Positions 1-4,285 of a stretch of 4,285 nucleotides of DNA are shown piece by piece (position 1 is the stretch's first letter; every line of letters begins with the position of its first letter). The notes below the pieces were generated by a model. It was not told where the DNA came from and searched no databases. It saw only the letters and a program-made list of their open reading frames with translations. A program made the translations under genes and the position numbers. The stretch comes from a virus (lineage: Duplodnaviria > Heunggongvirae > Uroviricota > Caudoviricetes): IMG/VR virus record IMGVR_UViG_2531839200_000014; one strand, given 5' to 3'.

Positions 1-491
1 GTAAGCAGTCGTACGCAAAAGGTTCATCCATTGCACTGGTCAGCCAGGTTGAGTTCTCAACCTCGTCATGGCGCCGCGCGGTTCTGTCTCTCGAAGAACA
101 TCAGAAAGCGTGGTTGCTGTGGAGTTACAGCGAAAGTGTTCGCTGGGAACATCAGGTCACCATAACGCAGTGGGCATGGAGCGAGTTTAAGACTCTGTTG
201 GGTACCAGGAAAATTGCAGGTAAGACACTGGAACGTTTGAAGAAGTTGATCTGGCTGGCGGCACAGGATGTGAAGAACGAGCTGGCAGGGCGTAAGACCT
301 ATGAATACCAGGAGCTGGCATCACTGGTGGGAGTGACATCAAAAAACTGGTCTGAGACATTTACTGAACGCTGGGTTGCAATGAAACACATTTTTCTACA
401 GCTTGATAGCCAAGCTTTATTGCTTTTAACGAAAACACGTTCAAAACAAAAGACCACATTTTCACAGCAAGATATTGCAAAACTGGATTAA
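1..491 (+). CDS. Probable late-gene antiterminator (Q-like), C-terminal portion; 5' end lies outside the window
   Basis: Seen: the frame of the listed 114..491 ORF stays open back to the window edge (no stop from nt 3 to 488; TAA at 489-491), and the listed 'M' at 114 is actually TTG, so the real start is upstream of the window. Inference: it sits directly upstream of a promoter/terminator region and the holin-endolysin-Rz cassette, the canonical position of Q in lambdoid phages. The sequence does not resemble lambda Q as I recall it, so it would belong to another Q family. Identity is by synteny only. Confidence 0.45.
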   Translation, partial: KQSYAKGSSIALVSQVEFSTSSWRRAVLSLEEHQKAWLLWSYSESVRWEHQVTITQWAWSEFKTLLGTRKIAGKTLERLKKLIWLAAQDVKNELAGRKTYEYQELASLVGVTSKNWSETFTERWVAMKHIFLQLDSQALLLLTKTRSKQKTTFSQQDIAKLD

Positions 492-503
492 AAATCATAT
501 ATT
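475..503 (+). promoter_or_regulatory. Candidate sigma70 late promoter (PR'-like): TTGCAA - 17 bp - TATATT
   Basis: Seen: TTGCAA at 475-480 and TATATT at 498-503 with a 17-bp spacer, overlapping the end of the Q-like ORF and followed by terminator hairpins, the same arrangement as PR'/qut/tR' in lambdoid phages. Motif-based only; no transcript data. Confidence 0.3.
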
Positions 504-558
504 TTATGTAAATCTGATATTTTGCCAATGTTGTACGCACTGGCAGTAATCCAAATTC

Positions 559-593
559 AAGCCCGAGGTTTAAAGCCTTGGGCTTTTCTGTTT
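559..593 (+). terminator. Intrinsic terminator-like hairpin (10-bp stem with one G-U, 7-nt loop) followed by a T-rich tract
   Basis: Seen: AAGCCCGAGG (559-568) pairs with CCTTGGGCTT (576-585), loop TTTAAAG, then TTCTGTTTCTG. It lies about 55 nt downstream of the candidate promoter, so it could be a Q-modifiable pause/terminator. Confidence 0.4.
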
Positions 594-672
594 CTGAACG
601 GTGAGTAGCCTTCCAACCTACCCCAGCCAGGGGGTCTTCAGCTGTTGAGTTGATATTGCTTAGCCCTCTGTT

Positions 673-698
673 GCCAGCTACATGCTGGCTTTTTTATT
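673..698 (+). terminator. Intrinsic terminator (tR'-like): GC-rich 6-bp stem, 5-nt loop, T6 run
   Basis: Seen: GCCAGC (673-678), loop TACAT, GCTGGC (684-689), then TTTTTTATT (690-698). Its position about 190 nt downstream of the candidate late promoter is comparable to the short constitutive late transcript of lambda (6S RNA) ending at tR'. Confidence 0.55.
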
Positions 699-800
699 CC
701 AGGCTTGTGGGGAGCATCAACTCCGTGCTTTGTCGTTAAATTACCCCGTGAGCCTGATTTCTGACATTTAACGTCCCGGCCTTTTGTCGGCGGCGAAACA

Positions 801-1118
801 TTGGCTATTCATATGCACGAAAAAGAGAGCCTTGCCGGAGCGTTCTGGCTCGTTTTGCTGATCATCGCAGGTTGGGGCGGTCTGGTCCGCTACCTGATAG
901 ATGTGAAGCAGAGTAAAGCAACGTGGAGTTGGATAAATGCTCTGGCTCAAATAGTGGTATCAGGATTCACCGGTGTTATTGGTGGCCTGATCAGCATCGA
1001 AAGTGGATTCAGTATTTACATGATTCTCGCGACAGCGGGGATTAGTGGTGCGATGGGTTCGGTTGCACTGACGTACTTCTGGGAACGACTGACAGGGGTG
1101 AAAAATGCAAAATCTTAA
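801..1118 (+). CDS. Holin (class I-like, three predicted TMDs); not lambda S
   Basis: Seen: 105-aa ORF (101 aa if the ATG at 813 is used; 801 is TTG) with three hydrophobic segments (AGAFWLVLLIIAGWGGLV, WINALAQIVVSGFTGVIGGLISI, FSIYMILATAGISGAMGSVALTYFW) and a charged C-terminal tail. It ends 14 nt inside the start of the endolysin gene, the typical holin-endolysin overlap. The sequence is unlike lambda S or S21 as I recall them. Confidence 0.75.
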   Translation: MAIHMHEKESLAGAFWLVLLIIAGWGGLVRYLIDVKQSKATWSWINALAQIVVSGFTGVIGGLISIESGFSIYMILATAGISGAMGSVALTYFWERLTGVKNAKS

Positions 1119-1581
1119 TCCTCAGCGTAAAGCCTTCCTCGATATGTTGGCGTGGTCAGAAGGAACGGATAACGGGCGACAACCGACACGTAACCACGGT
1201 TATGATGTTATTGTTGGCGGCGAACTGTTTACTGATTACTCCGATCACCCTCGCAAACTTGTCACGCTACACCCCAAACTCAAATCAACAGCCGCCGGAC
1301 GTTATCAGCTTCTTTCACGCTGGTGGGATGCTTACCGTAAACAGCTTGGTTTGAAAGACTTCTCCCCCAAAAGCCAGGACGCAGTGGCATTGCAGCAGAT
1401 TAAAGAGCGTGGTGCTTTACCTATGATTGATCGCGGTGATATCCGTCAGGCAATCGACCGTTGCAGTAATATCTGGGCTTCACTGCCGGGCGCTGGTTAT
1501 GGTCAGTTCGAGCATAAGGCTGACAGCCTGATTGCAAAATTCAAAGAAGCTGGCGGAACGGTCAGAGAGAGTGAGGTATGA
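1105..1581 (+). CDS. R: Endolysin R (lambda-type lytic transglycosylase), 158 aa
   Basis: The protein (…[48 protein letters not shown]…[51 protein letters not shown]…) matches my recollection of lambda R almost throughout, with minor differences at the N and C termini. Start overlaps the holin end; stop overlaps the Rz start (ATGA at 1578-1581). Confidence 0.95.
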
Positions 1582-2039
1582 GCAGAATAACCGCGATTAT
1601 CTCCGCTCTGCTCATCTGCATCATCGTCTGCCTGTCATGGGCTGTTAATCATTACCGTGATAACGCCATTACCTACAAAGCCCAGCGCGACAAAAATGCC
1701 AGAGAACTGAAGCTGGCGAACGTGGCAATTACTGACATGCAGATGCGTCAGCGTGATGTTGCTGCGCTCGATGCAAAATACACGAAGGAGTTAGCTGATG
1801 CGAAAGCTGAAAATGATGCTCTGCGTGATGATGTTGCCGCTGGTCGTCGTCGGTTGCACATCAAAGCAGTCTGTCAGTCAGTGCGTGAAGCCACCACCGC
1901 CTCCGGCGTGGATAATGCAGCCTCCCCCCGACTGGCAGACACCGCTGAACGGGATTATTTCACCCTCAGAGAGAGGCTGATCACTATGCAAAAACAACTG
2001 GAAGGAACCCAGAAGTATATTAATGAGCAGTGCAGATAG
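1578..2039 (+). CDS. Rz: Rz spanin (inner-membrane subunit, i-spanin), 153 aa
   Basis: N-terminal TM segment ([20 protein letters not shown]) followed by a coiled-coil-like periplasmic domain; the sequence closely matches lambda Rz as recalled. Translationally coupled to R by the ATGA overlap. Confidence 0.93.
1798..1980 (+). CDS. Rz1: Rz1 spanin (outer-membrane lipoprotein, o-spanin), embedded in the +1 frame of Rz
   Basis: 60-aa ORF lying wholly inside Rz in another frame. It has a signal peptide with lipobox VVGC ([20 protein letters not shown]) and a proline-rich mature part ([13 protein letters not shown]), matching lambda Rz1. Confidence 0.88.
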
Positions 2040-2040
2040 A

Positions 2041-2062
2041 GCTGCCCATATCGATGGGCAGC
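2041..2062. terminator. Hairpin between the convergent Rz and bor stops (8-bp stem, 6-nt loop); possible bor terminator
   Basis: Seen: GCTGCCCA (2041-2048), loop TATCGA, TGGGCAGC (2055-2062), a perfect inverted repeat, located 2 nt after the Rz stop and 8 nt after the bor stop. Flanking U-tracts are weak on both strands, so terminator function is uncertain. Confidence 0.35.
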
Positions 2063-2070
2063 TCATGCAA

Positions 2071-2364
2071 TTATTGTGAGCAATACACACGCGCTTCCAG
2101 CGGAGTATAAATGCCTAAAGTAATAAAACCGAGCAATCCATTTACGAATGTTTGCTGGGTTTCTGTTTTAACAACATTTTCTGCGCCGCCACAAATTTTA
2201 GCTGCATCGACAGTTTTCTTCTGCCCAATTCCAGAGACGAAGAAATGGTGGGTGATGGTTTCCTTTGGTGTTACTGCTGCCGGTTTGTTTTGAACAGTAA
2301 ACGTCTGTTGGGCACATCCTGTAATAAGCAGGGCCAGCGCAGTAGCGAGTAGCATTTTTTTCAT
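2071..2364 (-). CDS. bor: Bor lipoprotein (lambda bor family; outer-membrane serum-resistance lipoprotein), 97 aa
   Basis: The protein MKKMLLATALALLITGC…ETITHHFFVSGIGQKKTVDAAKICGGAENVVKTETQQTFVNGLLGFITLGIYTPLEARVYCSQ matches lambda Bor as recalled. Lipoprotein signal with lipobox LITGC. It lies convergent to Rz, as in lambda. Confidence 0.93.
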   Translation of the reverse strand: MKKMLLATALALLITGCAQQTFTVQNKPAAVTPKETITHHFFVSGIGQKKTVDAAKICGGAENVVKTETQQTFVNGLLGFITLGIYTPLEARVYCSQ

Positions 2365-2497
2365 GGTGTTATTCCCGATGCTTTTTAAAGTTCGCAGAAT
2401 CGTATGTGTAGAAAATTAAACAAACCCTAAACAATGAGTTGAAATCTCATATTGTTAATATTTATTAATGTATGTCAGATGCGAAGGATCGTCACTG

Positions 2498-2563
2498 TAT
2501 TCCCGGATTAACTATGTCCGCAGCCCTGACAGGGAAACTCCTCTGCGGGAGTGTCCGGGAATA
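2498..2563. repeat. Nested inverted repeat / palindromic element in the intergenic region upstream of bor
   Basis: Seen: outer perfect 10-bp arms TATTCCCGGA (2498-2507) and TCCGGGAATA (2554-2563); inner arms CCGCAG (2518-2523) and CTGCGG (2543-2548); central palindrome CCCTG-A-CAGGG (2524-2534). No flanking T/A run, so it is not a canonical intrinsic terminator. Confidence 0.5.
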
Positions 2564-2655
2564 ATTAATAACGATGCACACAGGGTTTAGCGCGTACACG
2601 TATTGCATTATGCCAACGCCCCGGTGCTGACACGGAAGAAACCGGACGTGATGAT

Positions 2656-3066
2656 TTAGCGTGGAAAGATTTGTGTAGTGTTCTGAATGCTCTCAGTAAA
2701 TAGTAATGAATTATCAAAGGCATAGTAATATCTTTTATGTTCGTGGATATTTGTAACCCATCGGAAAACTCCTGCTTTAGCAAGATTTTCCCTGTATTGC
2801 TGAAATGTGATTTCTCTTGATTTCAACCTATCATAGGACGTTTCTATAAGATGCGTATTTCTTGAGAATTTAACATTCACAACCTTTTTAAGTCCTTTTA
2901 TTAACACAGTGTTATCGTTTTCTAACACAATGTGAATATTATCTGTGGCTAGATAGTAAATATAATGTGAGACATTGTGACGTTTTAGTTCAGAATAAAA
3001 CAATTCACAGTTTAAATCTTTTCGCACTTGATCGAATATTTCTTTAAAAATGGCAACCTGAGCCAT
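2656..3066 (-). CDS. Lambdap78 / YbcV-like (DUF1398-type) moron protein; 136 aa from the ATG at 3066, possible N-terminal extension to a TTG at 3189 (177 aa)
   Basis: Seen: the ORF is open from 3189 to 2656 on the minus strand. The codon at 3189 is TTG immediately after an in-frame stop, whereas the ATG at 3066 is preceded by GGAAGG about 8 nt upstream, a good RBS. Strongly AT-rich relative to the lysis genes. Its position and orientation (immediately rightward of bor, same strand) match the lambdap78/ybcV slot in lambda and DLP12-like prophages. Identification is by synteny and size. Confidence 0.7.
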
Positions 3067-3351
3067 TGGTAAAACCTTCCATGTGATACGAGGGCGCGTA
3101 GTTTGCATTATCGTTTTTATCGTTTCAATCTGGTCTGACCTCTTTGTGTTTTGTTGATGATTTATGTCAAATATTAGGAATGTTTTCAATTAATAGTATT
3201 GGTTGCGTAACAAAGTGCGGTCCTGCTGGCATTCTGGAGGGAAATACAACCGACAGATGTATGTAAGGCCAACGTGCTCAAATCTTCATACAGAAAGATT
3301 TGAAGTAATATTTTAACCGCTAGATGAAGAGCAAGCGCATGGAGCGACAAA

Positions 3352-3558
3352 ATGAATAAAGAACAATCTGCTGATGATCCCTCCGTGGATCTGATTCGTG
3401 TAAAAAATATGCTTAATAGCACCATTTCTATGAGTTACCCTGATGTTGTAATTGCATGTATAGAACATAAGGTGTCTCTGGAAGCATTCAGGGCAATTGA
3501 GGCAGCGTTGGTGAAGCACGATAATAATATGAAGGATTATTCCCTGGTGGTTGACTGA
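3352..3558 (+). CDS. Lambdap79 / YbcW-like small protein, 68 aa
   Basis: ATG at 3352 is preceded by GGAG about 7 nt upstream. The 68-aa length and its divergent position relative to the p78-like gene match the lambdap79/ybcW slot. Function unknown. Confidence 0.75.
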
Positions 3559-3722
3559 TCACCATAACTGCTAATCATTCAAACTACTTAACCTGTGACA
3601 GAGCCAACACGCAGTCTGTCACTGTCAGGAAAGTGGTAAAACTGCAACTCAATTACTGCAATGCCCTCGTAATTAAGTGAATTTACAATATCGTCCTGTT
3701 CGGAGGGAAGAACGCGGGATGT

Positions 3723-3917
3723 TCATTCTTCATCACTTTTAATTGATGTATATGCTCTCTTTTCTGACGTTAGCCTCCGACGGCAGGCTTCAATGACCCA
3801 GGCTGAGAAATTTCCGGACCCTTTTTGATCAAGAGCGATGTTAATTTGTTCAATCATTTGGTTAGGAAAGCGGATGTTGCGGGTTGTTGTTCTGCGGGTT
3901 CTGTTCTTCGTTGACAT
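3723..3917 (-). CDS. Small ribbon-helix-helix-like protein (YlcI/DUF3950-like), 64 aa
   Basis: 64-aa ORF with a basic N-terminus (TKNRTRRTTTR) followed by a beta-strand/helix/helix pattern (NIRFPNQMIEQINIALDQKGSGNFSAWVIEACRRRL) typical of CopG/Arc-type RHH DNA-binding proteins. It occupies the position of ylcI in DLP12-type prophages, between the ybcW-like gene and the packaging region. Confidence 0.65.
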   Translation of the reverse strand: MSTKNRTRRTTTRNIRFPNQMIEQINIALDQKGSGNFSAWVIEACRRRLTSEKRAYTSIKSDEE

Positions 3918-3933
3918 GAGGTTGCCCCGTATT

Positions 3934-4285
3934 TGAACCGCCCCGGAAATCCTGGAGACTAAACTCCCTGAGAAAGAGGTAAACAGGATGACTAAAAATA
4001 CTCGTTTTTCCCCCGAGGTCCGTCAACGGGCAGTTCGTATGGTTCTGGAAAGTCAGGGCGAATATGACTCACAATGGGCGGCAATTTGTTCCATTGCCCC
4101 AAAGATTGGCTGTACACCAGAGACTCTGCGTGTGTGGGTTCGTCAGCATGAGCGGGATACCGGGAGTGGTGATGGTGGACTCACCACCGCTGAACGTCAG
4201 CGTCTGAAAGAGCTGGAACGTGAAAATCGTGAACTGCGCCGCAGTAACGATATCCTTCGCCAGGCTTCCGCTTATTTTGCGAAGG
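3934..4285 (+). mobile_element. IS3 insertion sequence, left end (partial; continues beyond the window)
   Basis: Left terminus beginning TGAACCGCCCCGG… at about 3934 (boundary placed from my recollection of the IS3 left inverted repeat), followed 54 nt later by the IS3 orfA start. The prophage sequence ends abruptly at this point. Confidence 0.8.
3988..4285 (+). CDS. insE: IS3 transposase OrfA (InsE-type HTH/leucine-zipper protein), 3'-partial
   Basis: Own translation from the ATG at 3988 (RBS AAGAGG 8 nt upstream): [99 protein letters not shown]…, which matches the IS3 OrfA sequence as I recall it. The ORF has no stop within the window, which is why it is absent from the supplied ORF track. 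Confidence 0.88.

Follow-up and report, generated by a model that had tools for sequence, protein, structure and literature searches.

An IS629 end beside ylcI in the late region of an Sp8-type lambdoid prophage of the Escherichia coli O157:H7 lineage

The element treated here has its closest described relative in IS629, an insertion sequence (IS) of the IS3 family with the isoforms IS1203 and IS3411, found in E. coli O157:H7 and in Shigella. A published IS629 survey describes it as the dominant IS of O157:H7, present in 22-25 copies per genome, with 62% of the O157:H7 copies lying in prophages or prophage-like elements; insertion generates duplications of 3-4 bp, the target is not sequence-specific, and subtypes stand 4-5% apart (PMC3271280). 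Among the 47 sites surveyed in four O157 genomes, some lie in prophage Sp8, which is listed with the prophages holding target sites (PMC3271280). The element at our locus shares with IS629 its sequence over the 352 nt present in the window; sibling copies add the length of 1310 bp, the TGAACCGCCCCGG termini, duplications of 3-4 bp, and orfA/orfB with a programmed frameshift and an ALIL pseudoknot. A more distant point of reference is IS3 of E. coli K-12 (insE/insF), which has the same family architecture (two open reading frames, a -1 frameshift, a DDE transposase and TG...CA ends) but shows no detectable similarity in nucleotide sequence or in OrfA, and differs in length and in its terminal repeats.

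For the surrounding DNA the closest described systems are phage lambda and two prophages of the O157:H7 strain Sakai. The late region of lambda runs Q, PR', S, R, Rz/Rz1, bor, lambdap78/79, cos, nu1 and A, and the prophage described here shares this gene order. Sakai prophage Sp8 has neither cI nor cro; it is reported not to excise, and it showed no circularization, replication or packaging (PMC2669165). Sakai prophage Sp4 carries an IS within its nu1 gene (PMC2669165), so that both the element family and the boundary between lysis and packaging genes are shared with our locus. In Sp4 the small terminase gene itself is interrupted, whereas the IS described below lies in noncoding DNA, with cosN 184 bp and nohD, the small terminase gene, 373 bp further on.

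The prophage and its late region

The window, by which we mean the entire stretch of 4,285 nucleotides analysed, consists of prophage DNA from position 1 to 3933 and of an IS from 3934 to its end. The prophage part is identical, without gaps, over all 3933 bases to a locus in E. coli O157:H7 strain PV15-279, and matches Sakai Sp8 at 3932 of 3933 positions, with a single mismatch. Other O157-type chromosomes among the matches listed differ from it by a few bases at most (bit score 7258, against 7263 for the top match). PV15-279 is the sole zero-mismatch genome that was examined in detail; strain F3113 scored equally. The matching locus adjoins icd, and its annotation in Sakai reads 'prophage Sp8; lambda-like phage'.

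Pfam matches and identity to the references give the order Q, lysis cassette, bor, ybcV, ybcW and ylcI, which is the order in lambda. The window begins inside Q, so that the 3' part of this late antiterminator gene occupies 1-491 on the plus strand (positions 102-217 of the Pfam profile Phage_antiter_Q); the reference coding sequence spans 2503-3192 of L001, the uninterrupted PV15-279 locus. The lysis cassette follows at 813-2039 (+), as identified by the profiles Phage_holin_3_3 and Phage_lysis and by reference annotations that include Sakai ECs_1621-1624. It comprises a LydA-type holin (813-1118, +; Phage_holin_3_3), a lambda R-like endolysin of 158 residues (1105-1581, +), Rz (1578-2039, +; Phage_lysis) and, embedded in Rz, the open reading frame of the Rz1 lipoprotein (1798-1980, +). 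We take the endolysin to resemble the transglycosylase R of lambda; a Pfam search at E<=0.001 gave no match for it, and its RefSeq label is glycoside hydrolase family 24. The cassette is mosaic, with the LydA-type holin accompanying this endolysin where lambda has S.

Beyond the cassette lie bor, a serum-resistance lipoprotein moron (2071-2364, minus strand; Pfam Lambda_Bor, E 1e-30, and reference annotation), ybcV (2656-3066, minus strand; DUF1398, E 3e-46; L001 5357-5767) and ybcW (3352-3558, +), whose 68-residue product carries this name in the 100%-identical reference. The start of ybcV is uncertain: the mechanically called reading frame, 2656-3189 (-), gives 177 residues from a TTG, the references give 136 residues, and one assembly gives 150. 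The last gene before the IS is an intact ylcI of 64 codons (3723-3917, minus strand; DUF3950, E 5e-20, YlcI/YnfO family). Its product is identical to WP_001300120.1, annotated ylcI in O157:H7. Unlike lambda, the prophage has ylcI annotated between ybcW and cos.

A few features of the noncoding DNA may be recorded. A promoter-like site, TTGCAA-17-TATATT, lies at 475-503, just past the Q stop codon; it is followed by a strong terminator-like hairpin with a 12-pair stem and a T-run, and then by a second hairpin (559-585 and 673-689). The layout fits PR' and tR', the Q-dependent late promoter and terminator of lambda. Six terminator-like sites were seen in 400-900, where 0.7 would be expected. Both ends of the window are multicopy sequence: each O157 genome has two copies of the first 130 nt, and the final 352 nt are IS629. 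A complete short-read contig flanked by repeats would have ends of this kind; the window may be such a contig, and its stop within the IS would then be accounted for.

Uninterrupted genomes show what normally lies beyond ylcI: a spacer of 388 bp, then nohD (Nu1), the genes for the large terminase and the portal, and head and tail genes. Window position 3933 corresponds to L001 6634, past which the uninterrupted locus continues CAGTGTCGCTG..., also given as CAGTGTCGCTGATTTG..., while the window departs from it at 3934. The cosN sequence GGGCGGCGACCT lies at L001 6818-6829, or 184 bp to the right of the insertion point, and aligns with the 12-nt 'cos site' annotated in lambda DE3; the ATG of nohD is at L001 7007, 373 bp to the right. 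Identity to lambda/DE3 is 95.5% for the segment from cos to nu1 in the uninterrupted relative, which takes in the spacer and the start of nohD. Genes encoding the identical YlcI protein were retrieved in ten distinct genomic contexts, and a Nu1 gene is adjacent in all ten; none of the ten has this IS beside ylcI. The expectation of the initial annotation that cos and the small terminase gene should come next is thus borne out by the uninterrupted relatives.

The element that begins at 3934

The change from prophage DNA to IS falls exactly at 3934, the outermost base of the left inverted repeat, and the adjoining prophage DNA ends ...CCCCGTATT. The ATG of ylcI, on the minus strand, occupies 3915-3917. 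The native sequence that remains upstream of it, read directly and compared with L001 6619-6634, is 16 nt long (3918-3933, minus strand): AATACGGGGCAACCTC, then ATG. A distance of 17 bp had been given earlier for this gap; the position behind that figure is right, and 17 is the difference between the coordinates. The insertion site is noncoding DNA between ylcI and cos, and neither was hit. The transposase gene of the IS has the orientation of the late operon.

Positions 3934-4285 (+) represent the left 352 nt of an element with a full length of 1310 bp. All 352 are identical to a multicopy O157:H7 element. It matches 3,745 of 5,426 E. coli genomes, and every O157:H7 chromosome listed has 16-40 places that match it. 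The left terminal inverted repeat is imperfect and 41 nt long (3934-3974, +), and its outermost 13 nt, TGAACCGCCCCGG, are perfectly complementary to the right end. Full sibling copies begin with this 13-mer, as the window does at 3934, and end with CCGGGGCGGTTCA, its reverse complement; it bounds every 1310-bp copy examined. In one identical full copy (L003) the arms of the inverted repeat lie at 3001-3041 and 4270-4310 and are 76% complementary. A 10-nt extension to the left of 3934, seen in one match (H29), was considered as a longer IS end and rejected as chance similarity of flanking DNA.

Within the window, orfA runs from 3988 off the right edge (3988-4285, +), giving the N-terminal 99 codons of the transposase OrfA/OrfAB with a helix-turn-helix match (Pfam HTH_Tnp_1, E 1.1e-12). 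The transposase coding sequence of full copies likewise starts 54 nt from the IS end and is annotated with a programmed frameshift. The frameshift site, orfB and the right end of the window's own copy lie beyond 4285, and were read from sibling copies. The orfB product of one such sibling (L010) matches rve, rve_3 and HTH_21, and the matching element is annotated 'IS3 family transposase, programmed frameshift, AL1L pseudoknot' (ALIL). An Rfam search of the window returned no matches; most of the ALIL frameshift pseudoknot lies beyond 4285. The marks of the IS3 family are accordingly present, with orfA and its helix-turn-helix in the window, the rve domain of orfB and the programmed -1 frameshift in siblings, and terminal repeats of the form 5'-TG...CA-3', for which the left end was read in the window and the right end in full copies.

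Membership in the family leaves the element to be named, and the initial annotation had called it IS3. These same family marks (the HTH_Tnp_1 OrfA, the programmed frameshift and the TG...CA ends) are what would speak for IS3 itself. Against K-12 IS3A, however, blastn of 3934-4285 returned only chance matches of 8-15 nt (the best 15 nt, E 0.64), and BLASTP of OrfA against InsE1 gave no alignment. IS3A is 1255 bp long in the MG1655 annotation and has different termini, while full copies of our element measure 1310 bp, and related copies carry IS629 or IS1203 annotations. That the element is IS3 proper is therefore next to impossible, and with neither nucleotide similarity to IS3A nor protein similarity to InsE1 we rejected this identification; what stands of it is an IS3-family end, now placed exactly at 3934.

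The name IS629 derives from the annotations of related copies together with PMC3271280. A copy in phage JLK-2012, 98.7% identical, is annotated 'IS629 putative transposase OrfA', and a Sakai copy just outside Sp8, 95.7% identical, is annotated 'IS1203 Family: IS3 / IS629 transposase OrfB'. Judged by sequence, the element is IS629, a member of the IS3 family. The window's copy differs by 4.3% from the Sakai copy labelled IS1203, and on that divergence belongs to the other O157 subtype, the one to which the NCBI annotation pipeline gives no IS1203 label.

The junction itself distinguishes this copy from known copies of IS629. By megablast it is absent from 5,426 complete E. coli genomes and from phage records; exact 40-mers and 27-mers across it have no match in GTDB species representatives, IMG/VR or JGI metagenomes; and two open reading frames that span it have no exact-sequence record. 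The exact site, unrecorded among complete genomes, appears to be new. IS629 itself is well known and highly active, and there is nothing novel in its behaviour or in its preference for prophages.

Such a junction, found in no other record searched, could be the product of misassembly, in which Sp8 sequence was joined in a chimeric contig to an IS629 copy from elsewhere. The end of the window inside a multicopy IS would suit this explanation, as would the first 130 nt, present twice per O157 genome, since both are expected of a repeat-bounded short-read contig. Against it, the switch coincides with the very first base of the inverted repeat (TG...), which is the outcome of transposition; no repeat common to both sides exists at the junction to mislead an assembler; and true insertions in draft assemblies normally look like this, with a unique flank that runs into an IS. 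We regard an artefact as very improbable.

Simple insertion or breakpoint

What lies beyond the right end of the IS is outside the window, so that a preference for simple insertion is a prior rather than an observation, and sibling IS629 copies were used as a guide to it. Duplications of 3-4 bp flank five of the seven siblings, which are simple insertions; the two without a duplication are rearrangements. The simple cases comprise a copy in the cII gene of another prophage (L002, duplication AAT), one between bor and ybcV in an Sp8-like prophage (L010 7409-8718, AP026082.1; GTT), one inside a small terminase gene (L017 4112-5421; GCCC), and two in the interval between ylcI and terminase, where the terminase genes follow directly (L015 3752-5061, GTT; L018 4063-5372, TTTA). 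The L017 copy, like that in Sp4, interrupts the small terminase gene and in this differs from the copy in the window. The Sp8-type late region of L010 has one mismatch to the window, and its insertion point corresponds to about 2510-2513.

On these grounds a simple and recent insertion is the probable reading of the locus. A copy of IS629 would have transposed, by the copy-out/paste-in route and with a DDE transposase made by -1 frameshifting, into the 388-bp intergenic region between ylcI and nohD of the icd-adjacent prophage in an E. coli strain of the O157:H7 lineage. The bases TATT at 3930-3933, beside the IS, would then be the left copy of a 3-4 bp duplication (ATT or TATT). The right end, ...CCGGGGCGGTTCA, should be followed by ATT or TATT and then by CAGTGTCGCTGATTTGTATTG, and cos, nohD with the rest of terminase, and the head and tail genes would be intact 1.3 kb to the right. 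A recent event is probable, given that the copy matches the bulk of those in O157 exactly and that the site is unoccupied elsewhere. Against a simple insertion count the two of seven siblings that have no duplication, the published figure of 21 sites in 47 with matching duplications (PMC3271280), and the exact junction, which was found nowhere else.

The same IS629 end could instead mark the breakpoint of a rearrangement, a deletion or inversion having split ylcI and the lysis module from cos, terminase and the morphogenesis genes, either through intramolecular transposition or through recombination with another IS629 copy after insertion. One sibling is a close parallel: in O26 strain RM10386 (L016 4064-5373) the copy lies beside a ylcI homologue, has no duplication, and is followed by ninE, ninB, ren and P on the opposite strand. 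The second sibling without a duplication, in PV15-279 between an excisionase gene and a truncated exonuclease gene (L003), is also rearranged. In the four-genome survey, matching duplications are given for just 21 of 47 IS629 sites (PMC3271280). A potential partner for inversion exists as well, in the form of an inverted IS629/IS1203-type copy at the right end of the same prophage in PV15-279, about 23 kb away (L019 30279-32069), where it truncates a tail-fibre assembly gene. Against a breakpoint stand the five simple siblings, two of them in the very interval between ylcI and terminase; the identity of the copy and the absence of the junction from 5,426 genomes, which suggest a recent event and little time for secondary rearrangement; and the window itself, within which there is no sign of a deletion. 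We consider a breakpoint unlikely, if by no means far-fetched, and keep simple insertion as the working interpretation. The proposal in the initial annotation that the IS truncates the late region reflects the window's ending 352 nt into the element; siblings in the same interval are mostly simple insertions (L015, L018).

Four independent IS629 copies (L015 to L018) lie in the region between a ylcI-family gene and terminase in different E. coli prophages, and this may be a recurrent target region. At least five independent IS629 positions have been seen in the interval from ylcI through cos to nu1 across different prophages. An orientation bias among the neighbouring copies was considered and rejected, as the search joins only pieces on the same strand and leaves copies in the opposite orientation unlisted. 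That this interval is a preferred landing zone for IS629 in lambdoid prophages strikes us as rather improbable; the AT-rich, protein-bent neighbourhood of cos could be what attracts the element. If it were such a zone, insertions there could repeatedly uncouple O157-type prophages from packaging or switch off ylcI.

Probable consequences for the late operon, the prophage and ylcI

Polar effects of the IS on the packaging genes had been proposed. RNA polymerase modified by Q passes terminators across the whole lambda late operon, and antitermination by N classically suppresses the polarity of IS insertions. The element shares its orientation with the late operon; a scan of a full IS629 copy found no intrinsic terminator on the plus strand; and cos is intact if the insertion is simple. 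For these reasons, together with the ability of Q-modified polymerase to read through terminators, strong polarity on the Q-antiterminated late transcript is unlikely. The late transcript would instead gain 1.3 kb, without strong polarity.

Nor is the IS needed to account for a defective prophage, as had also been suggested, since Sp8 is already without cI and cro and is reported not to excise, replicate or package (PMC2669165). In PV15-279 (NZ_AP018488.1) the early, immunity and replication region has been deleted, with xis followed by a truncated ylcG and then by Q (L019 2829-3431). Sakai Sp8 retains O/P-like genes, a serine recombinase and nin genes. With the prophage already non-inducible, the insertion would be essentially neutral.

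The locus is thus an ordinary strain-specific IS629 insertion, or polymorphism, in a prophage that was defective already. O157:H7 strains differ in their IS629 sites, which serve for strain typing and lineage inference, and a site absent from 5,426 complete genomes is potentially useful as a strain or clade marker. The insertion adds one more example of the erosion of the O157 prophage pool by IS629, and leaves the understanding of lambdoid late-gene expression, packaging and IS3-family transposition as it was.

The only local effect that is firm concerns ylcI. Only 16 nt of native DNA are left upstream of the gene, so its native promoter, if it had one, has been displaced by the IS, as the initial annotation suggested; whatever control sequence existed is now at least 1.3 kb away. 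The gene would be separated from its control region, and is probably silent or expressed at a lower level. A hybrid promoter formed with the IS end had been suggested as a replacement, and this idea is speculative. In the IS3 family the junction promoter of the circular intermediate combines an outward -35 element from the right end with a -10 from the left; as this outward -35 belongs to the right end, outward transcription from the left end, the one that faces ylcI, is not particularly to be expected. A consensus scan of the minus strand upstream of ylcI found no promoter in the window and none in the uninterrupted locus, and the best scores from a position-weight scan, 6.6 in the window and 6.1 in the native locus, both fall below the median best score of shuffled sequence. 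Scans that detect neither a native ylcI promoter nor a hybrid or outward IS promoter are uninformative.

The sequence pattern of YlcI is one that we take to resemble a ribbon-helix-helix DNA-binding protein. Relaxed Pfam searches and PDB sequence searches returned nothing beyond DUF3950 and gave no support for that fold. The protein has a basic N-terminus, and helices at residues 19-31 and 35-56 are predicted by single-sequence AlphaFold at low confidence (pLDDT 61).
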